DNA of 64,000 nt from Candidatus Magasanikiibacteriota bacterium (GTDB lineage: Bacteria; Patescibacteriota; Patescibacteriia; Magasanikbacterales; GWA2-37-8). Numbering within the stretch: position 1 is the stretch's first letter; each line of letters starts with the position of its first letter. Shown piece after piece: positions 1 to 63,777 of the stretch. The notes beneath the pieces were generated by a model. The model did no database searches, had not been told where the DNA came from, and worked only from the letters and a program-made list of their open reading frames with translations. The DNA lies in NCBI GenBank assembly GCA_036744835.1, contig DAIOHD010000001.1, positions 399,860-463,859 on the forward strand, written 5' to 3'. The translations under genes were made by a program, and so were the position numbers.

Positions 1-335
1 TAGATTTTAAAAATATTGATGAAAAATATAAAAAATTAGTTCGTAAAAATTCATTAGGTTTTGAAGTTTTTTCAAATGGAAAAAAAATAGAAAGCCCTGA
101 AGGTGCAGAATTAGCTGCTGTAAGGCAAATAGCTCATGAAATTTTAAAAACTTTTAAAAAAAATTATCCGCATAAAACAATGATAACAAAAAACACTGAT
201 TTTATATTAAGTGGAACAAATCTTTTAATTTCTAAAGTGGAATCTAAAAAAAATATATATAAAAATAAAATTGGCAGAAATGAAAAATGTATATGTGGTA
301 GTGGTAAAAAATATAAAAAATGTTGTGGAATATAA
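1..335 (+). CDS. secA: SecA preprotein translocase ATPase, C-terminal fragment (5' end cut by window edge)
   Basis: Frame 3 is open from the window start to TAA at 333-335. The C-terminus ...IGRNEKCICGSGKKYKKCCGI matches the SecA C-terminal zinc-binding motif (CxCxSGKKYKxCCG). Confidence 0.7.
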   Translation, partial: DFKNIDEKYKKLVRKNSLGFEVFSNGKKIESPEGAELAAVRQIAHEILKTFKKNYPHKTMITKNTDFILSGTNLLISKVESKKNIYKNKIGRNEKCICGSGKKYKKCCGI

Positions 336-364
336 TTTTTTAAAAAAAATTTTAAAATTAAAAT

Positions 365-649
365 ATGAAAAAATTTACAATTATTTTAAGTATTTTAGTT
401 GGTTTTTTTATTTTATTTGCATTTTTTATTTATTTTTTTGAATCTTATCAAAATATTAAAATCAGAAATGCCAATGCTTGTTATAATGAATTAACAAAAG
501 AAATTATCAAAGTTTGTGATAAAAAATGGGGTGAGCCAGGAAATGAATGTAGAAATGATTTTTTTTATAAAACCCCTTGTGGAAAAGCTATCAGAGAAGT
601 TTATTTTCCAAATAAAATTTGGGGAAATAATATTAAAAATATTAAATAA
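365..649 (+). CDS. hypothetical small secreted/membrane protein (N-terminal TM or signal segment, 6 Cys)
   Basis: 94-aa ORF from the track with a hydrophobic N-terminus and a Cys-rich tail. No recognisable family. Confidence 0.4.
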   Translation: MKKFTIILSILVGFFILFAFFIYFFESYQNIKIRNANACYNELTKEIIKVCDKKWGEPGNECRNDFFYKTPCGKAIREVYFPNKIWGNNIKNIK

Positions 650-655
650 ATTTAT

Positions 656-1009
656 ATGTCTCAAACCCTCAACATCCTATTCTTTACCATCATAATCATC
701 GCCGGATTTAGAATCTACGCGCTCAAACGCGAAATCGTCGCTTTATCCAAAGAATTGGAAAATGATAAAAAAGAATTTTCCACGCTTTCAAATTTTAACG
801 AAAAACAAATTGAGATAAAAAATAGAAATAAAGATAAGGTGATAAAAATGTTTGACAAACTAAGCAAAATTTCCAACAAAGACGTCGCCAAAGAATTGGA
901 TATCTCCAGCACCACATCTTTTCGTTATTTGGAGGAATTGGAAAAAGAGGGAAAGGTAAAACAGGTGAAGAAATGGGGAAGAGATGTAAAATATGTTTTG
1001 AATGGTTAA
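656..1009 (+). CDS. hypothetical membrane-anchored protein with C-terminal winged-helix (HTH)-like segment
   Basis: 117-aa ORF with an N-terminal TM helix, a coiled-coil middle, and a C-terminal segment DVAKELDISSTTSFRYLEELEKEGKV that resembles MarR/DeoR-type wHTH domains. Confidence 0.4.
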   Translation: MSQTLNILFFTIIIIAGFRIYALKREIVALSKELENDKKEFSTLSNFNEKQIEIKNRNKDKVIKMFDKLSKISNKDVAKELDISSTTSFRYLEELEKEGKVKQVKKWGRDVKYVLNG

Positions 1010-1040
1010 AAGTTGTTTTAGTAATTCAAATATTTTTAAT

Positions 1041-1096
1041 GACCAAACCCCAATGACCAATGACCAATCAAATCCCAATAACCAAATGCCCAAAAG
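1041..1096. repeat. (CCAAT-N)n repeat array, arm A (CCCAATGACCAATGACCAATCAAATCCCAATAACCAAATGCCC)
   Basis: Direct read of the sequence. It is inverted relative to the array at 1436-1490, and the two bracket the four-helix-bundle gene. Confidence 0.8.
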
Positions 1097-1448
1097 TAAG
1101 TATGATTTGGAAGAAAGAACAGCTTTGTTTTCAGAGAATTTAATAGACTTTTGTAAGAACATTAAACATAATACAATAACCACTCCTTTGATATCTCAAA
1201 TTGTCAGATCAGGTACTAGTATTGATGCTAATTATTGTGAAGCTGATGAAGCTAGTTCTAAAAAGGATTTTATCAATAAAATTTGTATTGCTATAAAGGA
1301 AACAAAAGAAACTAAATATTGGCTCCGAATCATAGCCCATACCGTGCCGGAACAAAAAGATATAGCTAGAATGCTTTGGAGAGAAGCCCAAGAATTAAAC
1401 CTAATCTTTGCCAGTATCATCAGAAGCTCTCGCGGTATTGGGAATTAG
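1086..1448 (+). CDS. four-helix-bundle protein (23S rRNA intervening-sequence protein / Avd-like family, TIGR02436/PF05635)
   Basis: MPKSKYDLEERTALFSENLIDFCKNIK...SQIVRSGTSIDANYCEADEASSKKDF...ETKYWLRIIAH follows the conserved pattern of this family. Start chosen at ATG 1086 because the upstream extension in the ORF track is encoded by the CCAAT repeat array. Confidence 0.75.
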   Translation: MPKSKYDLEERTALFSENLIDFCKNIKHNTITTPLISQIVRSGTSIDANYCEADEASSKKDFINKICIAIKETKETKYWLRIIAHTVPEQKDIARMLWREAQELNLIFASIIRSSRGIGN

Positions 1449-1490
1449 GAATTGGGTATTGATTGGGTATTGGGAATTGGACATTGGGAT
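1436..1490. repeat. (ATTGG-N)n repeat array, arm B (ATTGGGAATTAGGAATTGGGTATTGATTGGGTATTGGGAATTGGACATTGGGATT)
   Basis: Reverse-complement orientation of arm A. It overlaps the stop codon of the four-helix-bundle ORF. Confidence 0.8.
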
Positions 1491-1515
1491 TTTTCATCAG
1501 TTTTTAGCCAAAAAA

Positions 1516-1541
1516 AACACTCCAACCTAGGGTGAAGTGTT
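1516..1541. repeat. palindromic AACACTCCAACC-TAGG-GTGAAGTGTT element (terminator-like hairpin followed by TTTAAAA); family copy 1
   Basis: Imperfect 11-bp palindrome. Related copies lie at 58789-58814 (reverse orientation) and 63703-63730. Confidence 0.7.
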
Positions 1542-1566
1542 TAAAAAATAAATAATTTTAAATAAT

Positions 1567-2259
1567 ATGCCCAAACCTCGTCGCGTTGCCATTTTTGACA
1601 TTGACGGAACGATATTTCGCTCCAGTCTTTTGATTGAGATAACCGAAGCCTTGATAGATGAAGGTATATTTTCGCCCAAGACCAGAAATATTTACATGAA
1701 ACCTTACAAAAACTGGTCCAATCGCAAAGATACTTACGAGAAATATATTGATTCGGTAGTAACGGCTTTCTTGAAAAACATCAAAGGTGTTGATTATAAT
1801 ATTTTTACCAAAATTGTCAGAAGGGTGATAAATGCGAAAAAAGACCGGGTTTATCGTTACACTCGCGATTTGGTTCATGATCTCAAGAAGAAAGGTTTTT
1901 TTCTCCTGGCTATTTCTCAATCACCCAAAGAGCTTGTTCAAAATTTCGGTTATAAGATGGGCTTTGATAAAGTTTATGGTCAATATTATGAAGTTGGTAA
2001 AAACAAGAAATTTACCGGTAAAGTTTTATCATTAGAGATGACCGGTAACAAAGCCAATTTACTTAACCGCGCGTTGGAGAGAAACAATATTACTCTGAAA
2101 GGATCTGTTGGAGTTGGGGATAGTGAAAGCGACATTGCTTTTTTGAAAATGGTGGATAATCCGATTTGTTTCAATCCCAATAATAAACTTTATCAACACG
2201 CCAAAAAACATGGATGGAGTGTTATAATAGAAAGAAAAGATGTTGTGTATAAAATATAA
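1567..2259 (+). CDS. HAD-superfamily hydrolase, subfamily IB (phosphoserine-phosphatase-like)
   Basis: N-terminal FDIDGT (HAD motif I) and C-terminal GDSESDIAFL (motif IV). 230 aa. Confidence 0.8.
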   Translation: MPKPRRVAIFDIDGTIFRSSLLIEITEALIDEGIFSPKTRNIYMKPYKNWSNRKDTYEKYIDSVVTAFLKNIKGVDYNIFTKIVRRVINAKKDRVYRYTRDLVHDLKKKGFFLLAISQSPKELVQNFGYKMGFDKVYGQYYEVGKNKKFTGKVLSLEMTGNKANLLNRALERNNITLKGSVGVGDSESDIAFLKMVDNPICFNPNNKLYQHAKKHGWSVIIERKDVVYKI

Positions 2260-2280
2260 TCCGAATTTATAAATTTTATC

Positions 2281-2323
2281 CCGCCCGTCAACAACATGAG
2301 CTGTAGGCGATAGCAGGCGGGCG
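2281..2323. repeat. GC-rich inverted repeat (CCGCCCG ... CGGGCGG) downstream of the HAD gene
   Basis: 7-bp GC stem with a loop of about 27 nt and no U-tract. It may be a terminator or a REP-like element. Confidence 0.4.
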
Positions 2324-2379
2324 AAATTACAAAAAAATAATAAAAATTTAATTTAAAAATTTTTGAATAATATAAAATT

Positions 2380-3582
2380 ATGAAAAATCAATTTATTATT
2401 GAAAATAATATTAATGAATACGTAAAATATTATTCGAAAAGAATTTTGAAAGATCCGGAATTTTATAAAAAAGATGAAGCATATAAATATTTAGCAGTTT
2501 CCGTTTTTCAAAAAGAATTTGATTTAAATAAAAAAGATCTAGCATTAATGCTGAAAAAATCATTTTCAAAAGCTAGAAATTTAGTAGGATCTAGTCAATA
2601 TTTACCAGATTCAGTATTGATTGAATTTGCTAAAAAAGACCCAAGAAAAGTTTGTAAATTATTAAAAAATTTATTAACCGAAGGTTTCCCTGCAAAAGAA
2701 AGAATAGATGATTTTATTGAACAAATAAAAAATAATTTTCCTCTTCAAAAAAAACAATACTATATTGATGCGAGATTTTTGAGTTTTTTATTAGCTGCAT
2801 ATAATCCAAATAAATATTTTTATATAAAATCGAAAGAATATAAAAAATTTGCTCAAATGATTGGTTATGAATTAGATTTAAAAGGTTTATCGCAAGGAGA
2901 AAAATATCAAGCCATGGCTGAATTAGCCGAATTAACTAAAAGTATCTTAAAAAATAATAAAGAATTTAATCAAGTACATGAGTTGATTGTAGAAAGTTTT
3001 GACTATAAAGACCATTCAATAAGTTGGGGGACTTTCGATTTTATTTTTGATGTAGCCAGGAGAGAAGGAAATCAATTTGTTAAAGTTAAAGAGAAAATAA
3101 AAGAACAATCAAAGGTTGTTAATGCAAAGAAGGAATCAAGCGAAGAGTTTTTATTAGAAGAAGAAGTTGTTGACGAGATAAAAGAAAAATCAAAAGATGA
3201 AATTTTACAAGAAGCCAGAGAATTTAAACCTAAAGATAATATTGGGTATAAACAAAAAACAGGTGAATTTAAAGTTAGGATTGATAATGCAAGGCAGAAA
3301 ACTAGAGTAAAAATTTTAGAAAATTATATTTGCCAAGTTTGCGGCTTTACTTTTGAATTTCAAAATTCAGAAGGTAAAAAAAGAAAATATGCTGAAGCCG
3401 ATCACATTATAGAGAAATCTAATGGAGGTACAGAAGAAATAACCAATCTTTGGGTTCTTTGCCCAAATTGTCATATGAAAAAAACATTAAATGTTATCAA
3501 AATTGATCCAATAAAAAAAATAGTGACAGAAAATGGTAAAATAATTAAAATTAACGATAATCATTTGGGTTGGAATAAATAA
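2380..3582 (+). CDS. HNH endonuclease domain protein (unknown N-terminal domain, C-terminal HNH)
   Basis: C-terminus CQVCGF..x18..ADHIIEKSNGGTEEITNLWVLCPNCHMKK is a canonical HNH (CxxC...DH...N...CxxCH) motif. The N-terminal 300 aa has no family I recognise. Confidence 0.75.
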   Translation: MKNQFIIENNINEYVKYYSKRILKDPEFYKKDEAYKYLAVSVFQKEFDLNKKDLALMLKKSFSKARNLVGSSQYLPDSVLIEFAKKDPRKVCKLLKNLLTEGFPAKERIDDFIEQIKNNFPLQKKQYYIDARFLSFLLAAYNPNKYFYIKSKEYKKFAQMIGYELDLKGLSQGEKYQAMAELAELTKSILKNNKEFNQVHELIVESFDYKDHSISWGTFDFIFDVARREGNQFVKVKEKIKEQSKVVNAKKESSEEFLLEEEVVDEIKEKSKDEILQEAREFKPKDNIGYKQKTGEFKVRIDNARQKTRVKILENYICQVCGFTFEFQNSEGKKRKYAEADHIIEKSNGGTEEITNLWVLCPNCHMKKTLNVIKIDPIKKIVTENGKIIKINDNHLGWNK

Positions 3583-3588
3583 ATTTTT

Positions 3589-4815
3589 ATGAAACAATTC
3601 TCTCATTCCAAATTACAAGTTTATGAAAGATGTCCTTTGCAATATAAACTCAAATATCTTTCTGATATCAAAGTTAAGCGTGAGAATACAGTCGAAGCTT
3701 TTATGGGTTCGTGTGTTCATAGTGCATTGGAACTTCTTTATGATGATTTGTTAAAAACCAAACTAAATACATTGAAAGATTTGTTAGCTTTTTATCATAA
3801 AACATGGAAAGAAAATTGGGATGATGAAATCAAGATAAATAATAAAAAGTTTGATAAAAAACATTATTATAATTTGGGTAAGAAATGTATCCAAAATTAT
3901 TATGAAAAATATCACCCCTTTGACCAAGATCAGACTATAGGGATTGAAAATAAAATAAGTTTAAAATGGGGCGCCTATGAAGTAATGGGTTATATAGATA
4001 GGTTGTCTAGAGAAAAAAAGGGTGTTTACGCGGTACATGATTATAAAACCGGTAAAATGATGGAGCAAGAATACGCCGATAAAGATCGTCAATTGGCGCT
4101 TTATGCCATGGCGGTAAAAGAAAAGTTTAAAGAAGCAAAAACAGTGAAGTTGATTTGGCATTATGTCGCTTTTGGCGAAGATATTATTTCGCAACGTTCA
4201 AATGAAGAATTGAAGAAATTGAAAAAAGATATTTTGGAATTGATAAAAGAAATAAATCAAGCGGAAAAAGACGATAATTTTCCGGCTAAAGAAACGATGT
4301 GTGATTGGTGTAGTTTTTGGGAATATTGTCCCAAAAAGAAGCATCTATTCAAAATAAAAAAACTTCCCAAAAACGAGTATTTGAAAGAAAGCGGGGTAAA
4401 ATTGGCTGATAAGTATATTGAATTATCCGAAAAAAAATCAAAAATTAACAAGAAGGCAAAAACAGAAGTTGAAGATATCCAAAATGAAATAAAGAAAGTT
4501 GAAGAAGCCCTCTTGAAATACGCGGAAAAAAATAATATAGAAACTGTCCAGGGAGATAAAGCCAGAGTATTGATAAACAAAAAAAGCGTTTATATTTTTC
4601 CTAATAAAACTTCCGGTTTAGAAAATTATATTAAATTGGAAAAATTATTAAAAGAAACAAAGTATTGGAAAATGATCTCTGTAGTAAATAGTGGAAAATT
4701 GGAAGAGTTATTAGAAAAAGATATTTTTGACAAGGGTTTAAAAAAGAAAATAATAGCTTTGGCTCCAAAAGAAGAAACTATTAAAATTTCCATTAAGAAA
4801 AACAATGAAAAATAG
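3589..4815 (+). CDS. PD-(D/E)XK nuclease, RecB/Cas4-like (PDDEXK_1) with Fe-S-type Cys cluster and C-terminal extension
   Basis: N-terminal Cys (ERCPLQY), GYIDRL...AVHDYKTGK (D...D-x-K), QLALYA (QhxxY) and C-terminal CDWCSFWEYC. This is the Cas4/AddB-nuclease signature. A K/E-rich tail of about 150 aa follows. Confidence 0.75.
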   Translation: MKQFSHSKLQVYERCPLQYKLKYLSDIKVKRENTVEAFMGSCVHSALELLYDDLLKTKLNTLKDLLAFYHKTWKENWDDEIKINNKKFDKKHYYNLGKKCIQNYYEKYHPFDQDQTIGIENKISLKWGAYEVMGYIDRLSREKKGVYAVHDYKTGKMMEQEYADKDRQLALYAMAVKEKFKEAKTVKLIWHYVAFGEDIISQRSNEELKKLKKDILELIKEINQAEKDDNFPAKETMCDWCSFWEYCPKKKHLFKIKKLPKNEYLKESGVKLADKYIELSEKKSKINKKAKTEVEDIQNEIKKVEEALLKYAEKNNIETVQGDKARVLINKKSVYIFPNKTSGLENYIKLEKLLKETKYWKMISVVNSGKLEELLEKDIFDKGLKKKIIALAPKEETIKISIKKNNEK

Positions 4816-5374
4816 TATGGACTTACTTGTTAAGACAACAAAAAATAAGGAAAAGAAAAAAGAAGATAATTCTGATAAAAAAGAATTACTTTCTGTTGAT
4901 AAACATCCAAAAAGTGCGGAAAAATATCGCGAAGAGTGGTTTTTTGTTGATTATAAGCCAGCAAGAGAAAACATTTCTTATCAATTACAATATCTAGAGT
5001 TTTTGATAAATTTATACAATGATTATAAAATGTATTTGACCATAGAGTCTTTACATTGTAAAAATATCCTAATAACCCTAGCTTCCATTTTTGAAAGTGC
5101 TTTATTTGATTTGTTGTATCAAATAAACGAACAAAAAGGATTGGGGTTGGATATTAGAGAAGATTTTGTTAGTTTGATAGAATTGAGTTTTCGACATGGG
5201 TTAATAGATGGAAATATGAAATATTCACTTCATGAACTTCGAAAAGTACGTAATTTTGTACATATTTCTAGTTTGGAACATCAAGAATATCAAGCTTATA
5301 CAATTGAGCAAGTAAACTTATATCTTATATTATTAAATAATTTCCAAAAAAGAATGGAGGAAAAATTTAAATAA
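4805..5374 (+). CDS. hypothetical protein with C-terminal HEPN-like (Rx4-6H) motif; overlaps upstream gene by 11 nt
   Basis: 189 aa. ...YSLHELRKVRNFVHISS carries an R-x6-H / RN..H motif in a predicted helical C-terminal region, reminiscent of Abi/DUF4145-type HEPN domains. This assignment is tentative. Confidence 0.4.
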   Translation: MKNSMDLLVKTTKNKEKKKEDNSDKKELLSVDKHPKSAEKYREEWFFVDYKPARENISYQLQYLEFLINLYNDYKMYLTIESLHCKNILITLASIFESALFDLLYQINEQKGLGLDIREDFVSLIELSFRHGLIDGNMKYSLHELRKVRNFVHISSLEHQEYQAYTIEQVNLYLILLNNFQKRMEEKFK

Positions 5375-5504
5375 TATGATACTTATAATAGGAGTTGTAT
5401 TAATTTTGGTGATAGTTGGGGTAGCGAGTTGGTATTTTGTAGATTGAAAAAATTGCAAAGATTACAAAAATTGCAAAAATAAATAAAGTTATGAAGTAAA
5501 AAAT

Positions 5505-6044
5505 ATGAAAAAATATCTAATTTTCTTTTTAGTCATTTCTGTAGTAATTTTATCCGGTTGTAATAAAGCTACGGAAAACAAAGGTGGAGAATCGCAAAAT
5601 CAAGAACAAAAGCAAGAGCAAACAAAAAAAGGTGACATTAGCGACGATGTTTGTGCAGAGTTTAGTGCTGAGCTTGTCGGCAATGCGATGGGAAAAGAGG
5701 TGGTGAAAACAGAAGGTCCGAGTATGGCAAGTTTTTATAACTGCCGATATTATTTCAATTATGACGAAAAGACAAAGAAAGGTGATAATATTCTTTTGAA
5801 TTTAGAAAATTTGGATGTAGCGCGACAAAAAAGAGGTCATGAAATAATGGATAGAACAATAACTACCAATGATAAGATTAAAATGGAGCATTTTATGGCT
5901 ATGCAAGAAGATGGACAGATAAATTCTCTTTATCTAGTTTTAGGTCCAAATAGATTTATCTCTATCAACCGCAGTTCATTCAAAGCTGGAACAAATGAAG
6001 ATATTATCAATTTAGCGGAGAAATTGGCGGAAGAAATTAAATAG
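5505..6044 (+). CDS. lipoprotein, hypothetical
   Basis: Signal peptide plus lipobox (VVILSGC), followed by a low-complexity Q/E-rich linker. Confidence 0.5.
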   Translation: MKKYLIFFLVISVVILSGCNKATENKGGESQNQEQKQEQTKKGDISDDVCAEFSAELVGNAMGKEVVKTEGPSMASFYNCRYYFNYDEKTKKGDNILLNLENLDVARQKRGHEIMDRTITTNDKIKMEHFMAMQEDGQINSLYLVLGPNRFISINRSSFKAGTNEDIINLAEKLAEEIK

Positions 6045-6144
6045 GATACGAAATACGAAAAATTATGAAATTACGAACCGAATTTGAAAATTGATAATTA
6101 AAAATTAATTAAAAATTGTAAAATTAAAAATTAATTAAAAATTC

Positions 6145-6199
6145 ACCCCTGTGAAATTTCGCCGTAGGCGAACCCAACAAAGTTGGGATTTCACGGGGT
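6145..6199. repeat. GC-rich nested inverted repeat (outer stem CACCCCTGTGAAAT/ATTTCACGGGGT enclosing two small hairpins)
   Basis: Read directly from the sequence. Forms a three-way-junction-like fold with no U-tract. Intergenic between the lipoprotein and HIT genes. Confidence 0.5.
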
Positions 6200-6227
6200 A
6201 AAAAATTAAAAATTAAAAATTTTAATT

Positions 6228-6629
6228 ATGTCCAACTGTATTTTTTGCAAAATCATTGCCGGAGAAATTCCGAGTTTCAAAATCTATGAAGACGATTATG
6301 TTTTGGCTTTTTTAGATATTTTCCCGCACGCCAAAGGTCACACAGTCGTTATCCCGAAAAAACATTTGGAAAATATCGATGAATTTAGTGCCGAGGAATG
6401 GAATTTTTTGATGTCCGCGGTTCACAAAGTTGCCAAACGTGTGGAAGAAGTCCTCAAGCCCGACGGACTCAACATCGCGATGAATGATAAGCCTGTTGCC
6501 GGACAAGTAGTACCACACACTCATTGGCATATCTTGCCGAGATACGTTGGAGATGGGGGAGGATCAGTACATTCTATAATTAAAAATCCTGGTGATATAA
6601 AACCGGAGGAATTGATAAAATTATTTTAA
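6228..6629 (+). CDS. HIT-family (histidine triad) nucleotide hydrolase
   Basis: HTHWHILPR histidine-triad motif and an N-terminal CIFCKI. Confidence 0.85.
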   Translation: MSNCIFCKIIAGEIPSFKIYEDDYVLAFLDIFPHAKGHTVVIPKKHLENIDEFSAEEWNFLMSAVHKVAKRVEEVLKPDGLNIAMNDKPVAGQVVPHTHWHILPRYVGDGGGSVHSIIKNPGDIKPEELIKLF

Positions 6630-6632
6630 ATT

Positions 6633-7184
6633 ATGCGTAAAGCAAAAAAAACAGATGAGGAGATTATCCATCAAAATCCCTGGTGGACTTACAAACACGA
6701 TAAGTTTGAAAAAGAAGACGGCAGTGTCGGTGATTATTTTTATGTGCAAACAAACAATAGCGCGATGGTCGTACCTGTGCTTGATGACGGTCGGGTAGTA
6801 TTGATCAATCAATATCGTTATTTACAAGATAGGGAAAGTATAGAATTTCCTTGCGGGCAATTATTGGAAAACGAAGCACCATCAGAAGGTGCTAAGCGTG
6901 AATTATTCGAAGAAACCGGCTATAAAGGCGGGGATTTGATTAAAATAGGTAATTTTTGCGGTTTCAAAGGAGTGGGTAAAGATGAAACCCATCTATTCCT
7001 CGGGACCGATCTCAAACAAATAGATGAACCGCAAAAGGAAGACGATAGCGGAGAAATGGAAGTAATTTATCGTCGGGTGGATGAATTGGAGCAAATGGTT
7101 ATTGAAGGAAAAATTTGGGATGGCCAAACCCTGGCGGCCTTTGCTTTGGTTCGTGATCATCTTTATAAATTGATTACCTCGTAA
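6633..7184 (+). CDS. Nudix hydrolase
   Basis: Nudix box GQLLENEAPSEGAKRELFEETGY. Confidence 0.85.
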   Translation: MRKAKKTDEEIIHQNPWWTYKHDKFEKEDGSVGDYFYVQTNNSAMVVPVLDDGRVVLINQYRYLQDRESIEFPCGQLLENEAPSEGAKRELFEETGYKGGDLIKIGNFCGFKGVGKDETHLFLGTDLKQIDEPQKEDDSGEMEVIYRRVDELEQMVIEGKIWDGQTLAAFALVRDHLYKLITS

Positions 7185-7259
7185 AATTACAAAAGGGGAT
7201 GACTTCTTAGCAAATTTTTTGAGTTTGTGGTATAATACCCACCAGATTAAAGTTTTAAG

Positions 7260-9188
7260 ATGAGTGATAATTATTGGGACAATTTAGATGAAGAGCAAAA
7301 AAAAGAACCGGAGGAGTTTTACGCCTCTCCGGATGTTAATTATTTTGCCATGACCAATTTCCGCAATCAGATGCGTAAGTTTGGAATTAAGACTGATGAC
7401 CGTCGTCGTCATATGTATGTTATCGGTAAAACCGGTATGGGCAAGACGACCGTGATGGAAAATATGGTTTTAAATGATATTTATGCCGGGCACGGAGTCG
7501 GTTTGGTTGATCCTCATGGAGATTTTGCGGAAAAAATCATCAATTATATTCCGCCACGTCGTATCAATGATGTGGTATATTTTAATCCCGCAGACATTGA
7601 TTTTCCGGTTGGTTTTAATATATTTGAAACAGTTCGTCCGGAGCATAAACATTTGGTGGCCAGTGGTTTGATGGGAGTTTTCAAAAAGATTTGGGTGGAT
7701 ATGTGGAGTTCTCGTATGGAATACATTCTCAACAATACTATTTTGGCTCTTTTGGAATATCCAGGCACGACTCTACTTGGTATTAATCGTATGTTGGCTG
7801 ATGACGAATATCGCAATCGTATCGTGGCGAATTTGAAAGATCCGGTGGTCAAAGCTTTTTGGCAAAGTGAGTTTGCCGGTTACAATGATAGATACAAACA
7901 AGAAGCGGTCGCGCCTATCCAAAATAAAATCGGTCAATTTTTGTCCGCTTCTATTATTCGTAATATCGTGGCGCAAGTAAAAAGTAAAATTGATATTCGG
8001 GATATCATGGATAGTAAAAAGATTTTTATCATGAATCTTTCCAAAGGTAGAATCGGAGAGGATAATTCTCGGTTGCTAGGCGGTATGCTCATCACCAAAA
8101 TTCAACTTTCCGCCATGGAGCGTGTAGATCTGAAAGAAAGTGATCGTAAAGATTTCTTTTTGTATGTGGATGAATTTCAAAATTTTGCTACGGAAAGTTT
8201 TTCCAATATTTTATCTGAAGCTCGTAAATATCGTTTGGATTTGACGATGGCTCACCAATACATGGATCAGCTTGATGAGCATGTGCGCGCGGCGGTAATC
8301 GGTAACGTCGGCAGTATCGTCACTTACCGTGTCGGTTCTACCGATGCTGAAATTTTGGGTAAAGAATTTGCGCCGATTTTTACCGAAGAGGATTTGATAA
8401 ACTTACCCAAATACAATGTTTATTTGAAATTAATGATTGACGGGGTGGCTTCGCGTCCTTTTAGCGCGGTAACTTTACCACCGATTGGCAGACCAACCGA
8501 AAGTTTAGAAAAAGTGGTGCGGGTTTCTCGCGAGAGATATGCTGCTCCGCGTGATCAAATCGAAGATAAAATTATGCGTTGGAGTGGTATGGAAGATTCT
8601 ACCGGAGAAGATCGAGAGCTGGATGAAGATGAAATAGAATTTAACAAAGCGGCTCCATTGGTAAAAGCACCAGCACCGATAAATAAAGAAAAAAAGAGAG
8701 ATTTTCGTGGTGGTGATCGAGGTGGAGACAGGGGCAATGATAGAGGCGGGGATAGAAAGAAAAATAAAATGGACTTTGCTTCTCTACGTCCGGACCCTGT
8801 TTTTGTTCCACCCCCAACGGTGAGAATTCCTCGTAAAGAAAATATTCCGCCAAAACCGATAATAAGAACCGAACCAAAAATTATAGAACAAAAAAATCAA
8901 ACACTTTCTTTATCTTCGCTGCAAAATAGAACTGAAATAAAACCGCCGGAAAAATTAGCGCAAAAACTTCCACCAGAACCGATAGAAAAAGAGATAGAGG
9001 AAGTTGTACCACAAAGCATAAATTTCAGCGATTTGAAAAGATCTGCCAAACAACCTGTCAAACCGACTTTTAAACCACAAGAAAACAAAATAAATCCTCC
9101 AAAAAATAATAAACCTAGTAATGTTGTCAGTAATACGGGAGGATCAAAGCCATTAAAGCCAAATGATGTAGTGACTTTTGATGAATAG
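7260..9188 (+). CDS. TraG/VirD4/HerA-like (FtsK-HerA superfamily, DUF87-type) P-loop ATPase with long disordered P/K/RGG-rich C-terminal tail
   Basis: Walker A GKTGMGKTT, Walker B FLYVDEFQNF, and a TraG-like RKYRLDLTMAHQ. The C-terminal 200 aa are low complexity, including RDFRGGDRGGDRGNDRGGDR. Confidence 0.6.
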   Translation: MSDNYWDNLDEEQKKEPEEFYASPDVNYFAMTNFRNQMRKFGIKTDDRRRHMYVIGKTGMGKTTVMENMVLNDIYAGHGVGLVDPHGDFAEKIINYIPPRRINDVVYFNPADIDFPVGFNIFETVRPEHKHLVASGLMGVFKKIWVDMWSSRMEYILNNTILALLEYPGTTLLGINRMLADDEYRNRIVANLKDPVVKAFWQSEFAGYNDRYKQEAVAPIQNKIGQFLSASIIRNIVAQVKSKIDIRDIMDSKKIFIMNLSKGRIGEDNSRLLGGMLITKIQLSAMERVDLKESDRKDFFLYVDEFQNFATESFSNILSEARKYRLDLTMAHQYMDQLDEHVRAAVIGNVGSIVTYRVGSTDAEILGKEFAPIFTEEDLINLPKYNVYLKLMIDGVASRPFSAVTLPPIGRPTESLEKVVRVSRERYAAPRDQIEDKIMRWSGMEDSTGEDRELDEDEIEFNKAAPLVKAPAPINKEKKRDFRGGDRGGDRGNDRGGDRKKNKMDFASLRPDPVFVPPPTVRIPRKENIPPKPIIRTEPKIIEQKNQTLSLSSLQNRTEIKPPEKLAQKLPPEPIEKEIEEVVPQSINFSDLKRSAKQPVKPTFKPQENKINPPKNNKPSNVVSNTGGSKPLKPNDVVTFDE

Positions 9189-11179: not shown

Positions 11180-11182
11180 AAT

Positions 11183-11255
11183 GTCATCCCCGCGAAGGCG
11201 GGGATCCAGGAAAACATAAAATAACCCACTGGATTCCCGCCTTCGCGGGAATGAC
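11183..11255. repeat. long GC-rich inverted repeat (27-nt arms, each arm itself a CCCCGC-GAAG-GCGGGG-type hairpin) upstream of alaS
   Basis: GTCATCCCCGCGAAGGCGGGGATCCAG ... CTGGATTCCCGCCTTCGCGGGAATGAC. Cruciform-capable, with no U-tract on the + strand. Confidence 0.6.
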
Positions 11256-11278
11256 AAAATAAAAAAACAAAACAAAAT

Positions 11279-58723: not shown

Positions 58724-58788
58724 TACTACCCCTGCAGAATAATGCAGGGTTTTTTATTAACAAAAGTTATAATAAATATATTATTTTA

Positions 58789-58814
58789 AACACTTCACCC
58801 TAGGTTGGGGTGTT
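58789..58814. repeat. palindromic AACACTTCACCC-TAGG-TTGGGGTGTT element, family copy 2 (reverse orientation of 1516-1541)
   Basis: 24 of 26 nt identical to the reverse complement of copy 1. Confidence 0.7.
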
Positions 58815-58888
58815 TAAAATAGCTACTATAAGCCAAAATTAAAAAAGGCCGTTTTTAACAGTCTTTTTTAATTGAACACTTTTTGTAT

Positions 58889-63684: not shown

Positions 63685-63702
63685 AATATAGTATAAACAA
63701 AA

Positions 63703-63730
63703 AACACTTCAGCCTACAGGCTGAAGTGTT
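63703..63730 (+). terminator. perfect palindrome AACACTTCAGCC-TACA-GGCTGAAGTGTT + TTTAATTTTT (terminator-like; family copy 3)
   Basis: 12-bp perfect stem directly after mgtE. Same family as 1516-1541. Confidence 0.7.
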
Positions 63731-63777
63731 TTAATTTTTGCAATCTCTGTAATCTTTGTAATTTCTGTAATATAGTT

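Follow-up and report, generated by a model that had tools for sequence, protein, structure and literature searches.

The segment at 2380-5374 of the window, the 64-kb stretch of contig that was analyzed, carries three genes on the forward strand, referred to here as g1, g2 and g3; related loci are given L numbers. Translation verified the open reading frames of g1 (2380-3582, 400 aa) and g2 (3589-4815, 408 aa) together with their motifs, and placed g3 in the frame 4805-5374, as a sequence-only reading of this DNA had described. The 6-nt gap between g1 and g2 given in that reading was correct. Its 11-nt overlap between g2 and g3, which assumed a 189-aa product starting at 4805, was revised. Because all g3 homologs begin at a conserved M-[ED]-L-L, the start was inferred to be the ATG at 4817, giving a product of 185 aa (4817-5374, forward strand), so that a gap of 1 nt most likely separates g2 from g3.

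The flanks of the cluster had been described as unrelated housekeeping or hypothetical genes only, a description that does not hold for the contig, where a Type III restriction-modification (R-M) system and an OLD-family nuclease are encoded just upstream of the window. The proposed anti-phage setting was supported by restriction and defense genes around the cluster and around its relatives. The GC content of the cluster (0.23-0.30) was lower than that of the downstream genes (0.35-0.45). A HAD hydrolase gene (1567-2259, forward strand; Pfam HAD) is likely a core gene that marks where the island segment was inserted; in L005, a 50%-identical HAD copy is followed by an inserted block encoding a serine recombinase, a ParB-methylase, a nuclease, DUF2779 and g3. 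GC-rich palindromes do exist on both sides of the cluster, as a weak hairpin between HAD and g1 (2282-2323; dG -17.4, z -1.8) and a strong three-way hairpin downstream of a lipoprotein gene (6147-6198; dG -29, z -5.2; no Rfam match), but they are not cluster borders, since comparable GC-rich hairpins recur in many other intergenic regions of the window. Immediately behind g3, translation revealed a 23-aa hydrophobic ORF (5376-5447, forward strand; MILIIGVVLILVIVGVASWYFVD), of which a diverged copy was present in the closest relative, L054, and which was absent at the other g3 loci. This ORF possibly encodes a small membrane peptide, and its membership in the module is uncertain. The three genes themselves are genuine nuclease genes, located within an anti-phage island of this Patescibacteria genome.

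The HNH motif attributed to g1 (CQVC...DHII...NGG...NLWVLCPNCH) was found by translation at 3331-3489, in agreement with a match to Pfam HNH (E 2.5e-12). Sequence search of the PDB matched EcoKMcrA (6ghc) and TagI (6ghs), and Foldseek analysis of the g1 AF2 model (pLDDT 87.7) returned a probability of 1.0 for TagI and McrA. The C-terminal HNH (beta-beta-alpha-metal) domain is of the McrA type (3247-3546, forward strand), with a Cys4 zinc site formed by C318, C321, C361 and C364, and with H342. A long helix links it to an all-alpha N-terminal domain (aa 1-227; 2380-3060, forward strand), a putative modified-base sensor whose likeness to the HhH-GPD/Ogg/EndoIII fold was detected as weak matches both in Foldseek and at the sequence level. 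Homologs of this N-terminal domain were found on the NucS-like nuclease of L022 (hhalign 99.8%), on the McrB-like protein of L002 (hhalign 90.5%) and on an McrB-like ATPase of Butyrivibrio plasmid pCY186, where mcrC is the next gene. An inactivated sensor of the END type would have lost the catalytic Lys and Asp of glycosylases; K210-D211 and D220, near helix 215-227, are invariant in the g1 family. Full-length members of this family number about 30 and come from several phyla. No methyltransferase gene lies beside g1 in the window, L012 or L013, and a Type III mod gene follows the g1 relative in L010. The g1 protein is probably a modification-dependent-type HNH endonuclease, an END-like nuclease of the HNH type. 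Its N-terminal domain probably derives from a glycosylase (EndoIII/Ogg-like) and reads modified bases, like the sensor of END nucleases.

The Cas4/AddB-type PD-(D/E)XK core claimed for g2 was evident in translation as IDRL...HDYK, RQLALY and CDWCSFWEYC, and g2 matched Pfam PDDEXK_1 over residues 3-248 (E 5e-30; 105.7 bits versus a cutoff of 22) and the PHROG_69 exonuclease over residues 2-362. In 26 g2-family sequences, C15, D137, D151-Y-K153, Q168..Y172, C238, C241 and C247 were invariant, and the catalytic core D...(D/E)xK, the QxxxY motif and the four-Cys cluster are all present in g2. The K/E-rich tail of about 150 aa noted earlier (aa 256-408; 4354-4812, forward strand) is a C-terminal domain conserved across the whole g2 family, with invariant G269, L272, Y276, G322 and P338, and was covered full-length in homologs at about 40% identity. 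Assignment to Cas4 was rejected, as the TIGR00372 equivalog scored 44.7 bits, below its cutoff of 65; no CRISPR-like array or cas gene was found in the 64-kb window, and no cas genes in related loci. PDB profile search matched AdnAB nuclease domains (6ppu at 2e-7), and assignment to an AddAB/AdnAB helicase-nuclease was also rejected, since only the nuclease domain aligned (profile positions 122-255), without a helicase domain; no helicase gene adjoins g2. Overall, g2 is a predicted Cas4/AddB-like iron-sulfur DNase. Its family is large, of the repair type and mostly stand-alone, with more than 1258 proteins of about 400 aa across phyla.

The window protein g3 had no match in Pfam, PADLOC, NCBIfam or PHROGs. 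When curated HEPN models were compared with 34 g3 members, all matches fell below the gathering threshold (DUF4145, best E 0.044, 5/34; HEPN_RES_NTD1, 0.0025, 1/34; HepT-like_2, 0.15). The HEPN-like character suggested for g3 was upheld by the four-helix fold of its AF2 model (pLDDT 87.5) and by the position of its motif. This motif, LRKVRNFVH, was found by translation at 5237-5263 (forward strand) as L-R146-K-V-R149-N150-F-V-H153; it is of the HEPN active-site type and invariant in the close family. The R...H pair sits at the end of helix 3, with N150 directly after R149, and E97, within helix 78-111 and likewise invariant in the close family, provides the helix-2 acidic residue of HEPN domains. 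In the wider family (17-46% identity), R149, H153 and E97 were at least 90% conserved, and R149, N150, H153 and the helix-2 Glu were the most conserved positions, placed as in canonical HEPN domains. The family-wide pair is R149-x3-H153, one residue short of the canonical Rx4-6H; R146, which gives an Rx6H spacing (R146-x6-H153), was confined to the close clade. A conserved N-terminal DNSDKK peptide was modeled at low pLDDT (65-73). The family included 571 cluster representatives at E<=1e-3. It is distributed almost entirely in Patescibacteria (CPR), and one copy, in L062, was frameshifted. On the strength of alignment and model, g3 is a previously unclassified HEPN family with a seemingly intact R-N-x-x-H / Glu active-site constellation.

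Synteny did not support the earlier view of the trio as one module. All three genes occurred together at no examined locus except the window's own contig (L001). Relatives of g1 at 49-59% identity had no g2 or g3 nearby, and relatives of g2 at about 40% identity stood alone, beside pst/phoU-uvrA or UDG/AP-endonuclease genes. Close relatives carried mixed subsets: g1 and g2 without g3 in L056, GmrSD_N, g2 and g3 without g1 in L055 and L061, g2 alone among housekeeping genes in L057, and g1 and g2 as a remnant in L060. Each gene on its own and each possible pair of the three was encountered among close relatives. The slot before the g2-g3 pair was filled by a Type IV-like module in the window (g1), in L055 and L061 (GmrSD_N) and in L002 (McrBC), while a Bro-N protein is encoded upstream of g2 in L008. 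Since g1, g2 and g3 are scattered independently among relatives, an outcome that the sequence-only reading had itself named as refuting, the trio is not one unit. Nor does the close spacing speak for the operon that had been inferred from it, because gene packing is tight in these compact genomes and g1 and g2, which lie just as close together, clearly travel separately; such spacing is no evidence of a multi-gene system. An obligate, co-transcribed anti-phage system in which two DNases and a HEPN protein work together would account for the co-directional genes with junctions of 6 nt and 1 nt, for the renewed adjacency of g1 and g2 in L056 and L060, and for the Type IV-like modules that repeatedly occupy the slot upstream of g2-g3. 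Set against the scattered relatives and the at least 10 other gene families with which g3 pairs, this reading is very improbable and already largely refuted by synteny. We moderately favor separately shuffling modules over a fixed three-gene system.

The g3 gene was the last gene of the array in about 30 contexts, nearly all of them from Patescibacteria, behind many different genes. These encoded PDDEXK_1, DUF2779, GmrSD, GmrSD_N, NucS/YhcG-like, DUF4268, NERD and RE_TdeIII proteins and a 1070-aa methylase fusion, as well as NYN, Fic, AAA_15/21 and ABC ATPases. In about 16 of the 29 annotated contexts, the gene immediately before g3, or separated from it by one small ORF, coded for a DNase or a restriction protein, and g3 partners matched the PADLOC candidate defense families PDC-S02, PDC-S11 and PDC-M55C/HEC-05. 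At about 12 distinct loci the junction lay between -17 and +3 nt, and about half of the g3 loci had a gap of 17-257 nt. The g2-g3 pair was present in five distinct contexts (window, L002, L008, L055 and L061), where g2 identity ranged from 57 to 98%, the two genes were 0-11 nt apart and the flanking genes differed; GmrSD_N was followed by g3 without g2 in L033, versus g2 and g3 in L055. Because non-nuclease neighbors (ABC transporter, Fic) and wide gaps were also seen, the adjacency of g3 to its partners may partly reflect defense-island clustering and compaction.

The explanation that we prefer, and to which we give somewhat better than an even chance, is that 2380-5374 is a defense-island segment of independent restriction modules with a PrrC-style back-up HEPN RNase. 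From the domain identities, folds, conserved residues and gene neighborhoods observed here, we infer the activities, a physical g2-g3 interaction and its trigger. As a self-contained Type IV-like restriction endonuclease, g1 would recognize modified or hypermodified DNA of phages through its N-terminal domain and cut it with its HNH domain, and g2 would degrade DNA ends. Translationally coupled to g2 through the 1-nt gap, g3 would most likely be a latent RNase restrained by its DNase partner, an analogy drawn from PrrC and from further HEPN clades linked to R-M systems. A phage that neutralized or overwhelmed the DNase would then free g3, leading to abortive infection or growth arrest. The non-canonical Rx3H spacing of the wider family and the occurrence of g2 without g3 in L056 and L057 count against this explanation.

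The slots might cooperate more closely than independent modules would, with a swappable modification-dependent module (g1, GmrSD_N or McrBC) cutting first, g2 degrading the cut DNA and g3 serving as a fail-safe RNase. The role of g2 in this scheme is suggested because CPR bacteria often lack RecBCD/AddAB. A Type IV-type gene was co-directional with and immediately upstream of g2 in four of six distinct close contexts (window, L056, L055/L061 and L002), and g3 was always the final gene of the array. Defense islands by themselves would yield such neighbors, however; the Bro-N gene in L008, the absence of any such gene in L057 and the lack of g2 in L033 also speak against cooperation, as does an IS element in L061 that separates GmrSD_N from g2 without decay of the genes. 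Such a layered arrangement is unlikely. The opposite view, that nothing is coupled, would make g2 the lineage's repair-type RecB-family exonuclease and g3 an autonomous Abi/toxin-like HEPN protein or a selfish hitch-hiker. Tight junctions would then follow from CPR genome compaction only, as the g1-g2 junction of unlinked genes illustrates, and the view gains from the uvrA, UDG and AP-endonuclease genes beside distant g2 homologs, from the housekeeping surroundings of L057, from g3 genes placed after ABC transporter and Fic genes or, at many loci, large gaps, and from the frameshifted copy in L062. It is similarly unlikely, given that g2 and g3 stay adjacent over g2 identities between 98% and 57% while the flanks differ, that stop-start overlaps with at least eight unrelated upstream families exceed what random island placement would readily give, and that DNase or restriction genes so often precede g3.

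An improbable alternative sees in g3 not an RNase but a HEPN-fold protein without catalytic function, which as a regulator or antitoxin-like adaptor would restrain or target the nuclease encoded upstream. The Rx3H spacing would agree with this, binding without catalysis is the role of many HEPN domains (PMC3710099), and the DNSDKK peptide, modeled at low pLDDT, could serve as a docking segment. R149, N150, H153 and the helix-2 Glu are nevertheless the most conserved residues and lie exactly at the HEPN active-site place, and a non-catalytic role is disfavored because such conservation is the signature of catalysis. Beyond the preferred explanation of independent modules with a PrrC-style RNase, a bolder and rather unlikely proposal is offered tentatively: g3 would be a largely CPR-specific "plug-in" HEPN guard on many structurally unrelated restriction DNases, set off by inhibition of the DNase. 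Here it would form a three-layer cassette, as the fail-safe behind an END-like HNH sensor nuclease and a Cas4-like exonuclease, with g1 as the first HNH-type END nuclease. Docking of g3 onto DNases would perhaps use the conserved N-terminal DNSDKK segment.

CPR bacteria (Patescibacteria) are episymbionts with tiny genomes and a little-explored set of anti-phage defenses; g3 was missed entirely by the standard tools PADLOC, Pfam and NCBIfam. Should g3 be an RNase attachable to a dozen restriction nucleases, it would offer a compact natural test case for how "guard"-type abortive effectors monitor the state of first-line defense. Should g1 be an HNH-type END nuclease, the END family, described only in 2025, would gain a new cleavage chemistry and new phyla, and g1 would become a candidate reagent with which to detect hypermodified DNA.

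The cluster fits no named multi-gene system, as the sequence-only reading had concluded, and PADLOC gave domain-level HNH and Cas4/DruK matches only. Septu, Zorya II and other named HNH systems were rejected, with the PtuA ATPase and ZorA/ZorB absent and HAD, g2 and g3 as the neighbors of g1. The McrA, TagI and ScoMcrA Type IV HNH restriction endonucleases are among the closest known systems, the HNH domain of g1 being of the McrA/TagI type. END nucleases are fusions of an iEndoIII sensor with PLD, NucS-like or McrB-like modules (Yee et al. 2025 preprint, PMC12191111). The g1 protein resembles these in joining a putative EndoIII/Ogg-like all-alpha sensor to a nuclease domain, and homologs of its sensor on NucS-like PD-(D/E)XK and McrB-like proteins reproduce the same alternative partners and the same modular fusion. 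END-PaCF1 has an N-terminal PLD domain, in contrast to the C-terminal HNH domain of g1, and no HNH fusion is listed for END nucleases in PMC12191111. With Cas4, AddB and AdnAB, g2 shares the D...D-x-K and QxxxY core and the 4-Cys cluster; it differs in its extra conserved 150-aa C-terminal domain and in having no fused or adjacent helicase.

Identification of g3 as a HEPN-MNT toxin was rejected, since no MNT nucleotidyltransferase gene adjoined it in any locus examined; unlike the type VII toxin-antitoxin proteins (HepT; PDB 8xdj, 5yep, 7ae2), g3 lacks the RX4HXY tyrosine context, and its partner is an upstream nuclease gene. As a single-domain protein of about 185 aa without the N-terminal ABC ATPase of PrrC and RloC, g3 also falls outside that group. 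Links to R-M systems have been described for at least 16 HEPN clades, and a PrrC-like model has been proposed for them (Anantharaman et al. 2013, PMC3710099). From these R-M-linked HEPN RNases g3 differs in reaching no existing HEPN model, in its Rx3H core spacing and conserved N-terminal DNSDKK extension, and in its near-exclusive CPR distribution and unusually wide partner range. It resembles them (PrrC-EcoprrI) in its HEPN four-helix fold, its R...H pair, the Asn after the Arg and the acidic residue of helix 2, and in its position behind restriction-type DNases (REase-fold, GmrSD) in defense islands, and by analogy a back-up RNase role is proposed for g3.

The HNH nuclease gene (g1, 2380-3582, 400 aa), the Cas4/AddB-type PD-(D/E)XK nuclease gene (g2, 3589-4815, 408 aa) and the HEPN gene (g3, 4805-5374, 189 aa as first called) are co-directional on the forward strand, with exactly the coordinates and lengths reported in the sequence-only reading. 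The motifs quoted there for the three proteins were confirmed by translation. The 11-nt overlap previously placed between g2 and g3 is most likely a 1-nt gap, since all g3 homologs begin at a conserved M-[ED]-L-L, corresponding to the ATG at 4817, and the gene calls on the source contig likewise start g3 there. The upstream in-frame ATG at 4805 falls within an imperfect 25-nt tandem duplication (4764-4811, 1.9 copies) across the 3' end of g2. This duplication may explain the four extra codons (MKNS) of g3 relative to its MELL-starting homologs.

The proposal that the three genes form one uncharacterised defence module was not borne out by synteny comparison, as the genes occur solitary or in other combinations among relatives. 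The proteins of the trio were located on Patescibacteria (CPR) contigs. Three relatives of g1 (49-59% identity) were solitary, with neither g2 nor g3 nearby, and adjoined a Type III restriction-modification (R-M) system, a Type I R-M system and housekeeping genes, one each. g2 and g3 were found together in loci L053 and L054 (98% identity in g2); in L055 (78%), where HsdR lies ahead of GmrSD_N, g2 and g3 without g1; and in L061-L066 (67%), which carry AbiEii, SNase, GmrSD_N, an IS3-type insertion, g2 and g3. In L056 (70%), g1 and g2 precede a glycosyltransferase-like gene and g3 is absent, while L057 (64%) holds a solitary g2 amid housekeeping genes. Signs of rapid turnover were seen in L060, where an intact g1 is followed by a 44-aa g2 remnant (4001-4132), in L062, where g3 is frameshifted (2849-3407), and in L061, where an IS3-family transposase is inserted between GmrSD_N and g2 (3816-4917). 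Scans against PADLOC, NCBIfam and PHROG gave domain-level hits only, in agreement with the earlier statement that no named system matches; Septu, Zorya and Druantia-type assignments were ruled out on the same grounds. The domains and the defence context of the original interpretation were retained, and the three-gene system was not. The cluster is best supported as a defence-island segment of independent modules.

The GC content of the cluster is 23-30%, compared with 35-45% in genes from approximately 6.2 kb onward. The flanks, earlier described as only unrelated housekeeping or hypothetical genes, are not merely housekeeping: directly upstream of the window, the same contig encodes Type III R-M together with a nuclease of the OLD family. 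The OLD-family gene (AAA_15/AAA_21 plus TOPRIM) is situated between the Type III mod and res genes (positions 1-5959 of L001, the window's own contig), and a SEC-C-motif protein whose 3' end is at window 180-335 follows the R-M system. The product of 656-1009 (+) is a 117-aa protein whose N-terminus forms a hydrophobic helix and which has a winged helix-turn-helix resembling CasR/Csa3. An 86%-identical copy lies between hsdR and GmrSD_N-g2-g3 in the island of another genome (L055, 1384-1725), and the protein is possibly an island-associated regulator. The end of its gene is overlapped by 8 nt by the gene for a 148-aa "23S rRNA intervening-sequence protein" (PF05635; 1002-1448, +), within the low-GC island segment. 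A HAD hydrolase gene occupies 1567-2259. In L005, a counterpart with 50% identity (502-1200) stands ahead of a different inserted block, in which a large serine recombinase gene comes before genes for a ParB-methylase and a PDC-S11 protein, then DUF2779 and g3. In CPR genomes, integration may recur at a hotspot downstream of the HAD gene. Beyond the cluster, a 642-aa P-loop protein with a long Pro/Lys-rich low-complexity C-terminal tail is encoded at 7260-9188 (+).

The palindromes noted on both sides of the cluster exist. They do not delimit it, since comparable GC-rich hairpins are scattered at many intergenic sites of the window, and a role as mobile-element borders was ruled out for the same reason. 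The hairpin at 6147-6198 forms a three-way structure (z -5.2), and that at 11182-11256 (dG -54 kcal/mol, z -11.8) stands out in this AT-rich genome; further very stable examples lie at 1515-1542, 58782-58821 and 63701-63732. Several of the others share a common AAACACTTCA(C/G)CCT arm. No Rfam match was obtained for the hairpins in window 1-8000; a role as terminators, or membership in a REP-like repeat family, is conceivable. Behind g3, at 5376-5447 (+) and starting 1 nt past its stop codon, lies a strongly hydrophobic 23-aa ORF, MILIIGVVLILVIVGVASWYFVD. L054, the closest relative, has a diverged version, MSFMLIIGAILLLVIVGVVSWKMME, behind its own g3; every other g3 locus lacked the ORF, which ruled it out as a conserved fourth component.

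The g1 protein matched Pfam HNH at residues 318-369 (E 2.5e-12). In its structural model (pLDDT 87.7), a long helix links an all-alpha N-terminal domain (1-227) to an HNH domain of beta-beta-alpha type. The N-terminal domain is shared with a NucS-like PD-(D/E)XK nuclease in L022 (hhalign 99.8%), itself encoded upstream of a g3 homolog, with a McrB-like protein in L002 (90.5%), and with a McrB-like ATPase followed by mcrC on a Butyrivibrio plasmid. In the END nucleases described in a preprint (PMC12191111), an EndoIII/Ogg-like domain that has been inactivated senses hypermodified bases and is fused to PLD, a NucS-like PD-DExK nuclease or a McrB-like GTPase. Because its N-terminal domain shows this same pattern of alternative partners, g1 was read as END-like, although that paper lists no HNH fusion and the g1 effector is HNH. 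A PDB profile search found no glycosylase match for the domain, and hhalign against E. coli Nth was not significant (with an approximate Nth query sequence). On this analysis, the best reading of g1 is that of a stand-alone enzyme resembling Type IV, probably an HNH-type END variant.

The g2 protein matched Pfam PDDEXK_1 at residues 3-248 (E 5e-30) and, as predicted from its invariant residues (C15, D137, D151-Y-K153, Q168...Y172, C238, C241 and C247), is a RecB/AddB/Cas4-type iron-sulfur nuclease. The AdnAB nuclease domains are its nearest solved relatives. It scores below the Cas4 equivalog cutoff, and no CRISPR array was found in the 64-kb window. The family exceeds 1258 proteins of approximately 400 aa across bacterial phyla and archaea, and the C-terminal 150 aa are conserved throughout.

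The g3 protein had no match in Pfam, PADLOC, NCBIfam or PHROGs, and a PDB profile search found nothing; individual family members scored below threshold against DUF4145, HEPN_RES_NTD1 and HepT-like_2. An exhaustive profile search recovered 571 cluster representatives (E<=1e-3), most of which are 180-230 aa long and stand alone. The LRKVRNFVH stretch proposed as an R-x6-H motif is present, but Rx6H via R146 is confined to the close clade. The deeply conserved motif is R-N-x-x-H, since R149 and H153 are, with F47 and E97, conserved in at least 90% of 58 representatives (17-46% identity). The only fusion seen in the close family is P0043 (256 aa; L037, 5779-6549), whose approximately 70-aa N-terminal extension has CxxC...C motifs and the look of a zinc ribbon. 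No relatives of g3 were found in the plasmids searched, no MNT gene accompanies it, and a phage origin was ruled out, as IMG/VR viral contigs held no relatives. This HEPN family is unclassified and absent from current libraries, and its partner range in CPR bacteria is unusually broad.

Co-directional arrays end with g3 in 33 genome loci and in the metagenome loci. The genes upstream encode Cas4-like PDDEXK_1 proteins (five distinct contexts), a 258-aa PDDEXK_1 protein, DUF2779, full-length GmrSD and GmrSD_N-only proteins, NucS/YhcG-like PD-(D/E)XK nucleases, DUF4268, NERD, the TdeIII restriction enzyme, a 1070-aa methylase fusion, NYN RNases, Fic, AAA_15/21, ABC ATPases and an unannotated 311-347 aa family. 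Several match families that PADLOC lists as defence candidates (PDC-S02, PDC-S11 and PDC-M55C/HEC-05). The overlap of the 311-347 aa family with g3 homologs reaches 17 nt (L019-L021 and L023, ~4940-6023; Colwellbacteria and other CPR), and a 591-aa protein precedes g3 in L030 (634-2409). Neither has a Pfam or PADLOC match, and both are candidate novel nuclease partners. The 386-aa protein upstream of g3 in L005 is PADLOC PDC-S11; the g1 N-terminal domain was ruled out for it (hhalign probability 1.4%).

In the proposed mechanism, g3 would be a HEPN add-on whose translation is coupled to that of the DNase gene ahead of it, whichever that is, and would be released when restriction is neutralised, as in the PrrC-like model; we infer the activities of g1-g3, the g2-g3 interaction and the trigger. 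Three main rivals were weighed. One holds that no coupling exists: the genome is compact, and a repair nuclease lies next to a HEPN gene that acts autonomously. Relatives of g2 at approximately 40% identity are indeed solitary, lying behind pstSCAB-phoU and before uvrA or adjoining UDG/AP-endonuclease genes, and g3 junctions in the remaining loci have gaps of 9-257 nt; to be set beside this, junctions of -17 to +3 nt occur in approximately 12 distinct loci, with upstream genes from at least eight families.

Another main rival is a more loosely built functional cassette of three slots, in which Type IV modules can be swapped. L055 and L061, where GmrSD_N stands upstream of g2 and g3 and g1 is missing, speak for it; L033, where a GmrSD_N protein of the L055 type is directly upstream of g3 without g2, speaks against it. 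The third is that g3 is non-catalytic. Its motif is one residue shorter than the canonical HEPN Rx4-6H; Asn, a polar residue, follows the motif Arg, and a conserved Glu lies in helix 2, as in the HEPN active-site arrangement (PMC3710099).

What is new is a HEPN family missing from current libraries and a probable HNH-type END-like nuclease. Both the g3 family and g1 are variants of already known kinds. At least 16 HEPN clades are tied to R-M systems, for which a PrrC-like model of release upon neutralised restriction has been described (PMC3710099), and the position of g3 behind DNases parallels these clades and PrrC.
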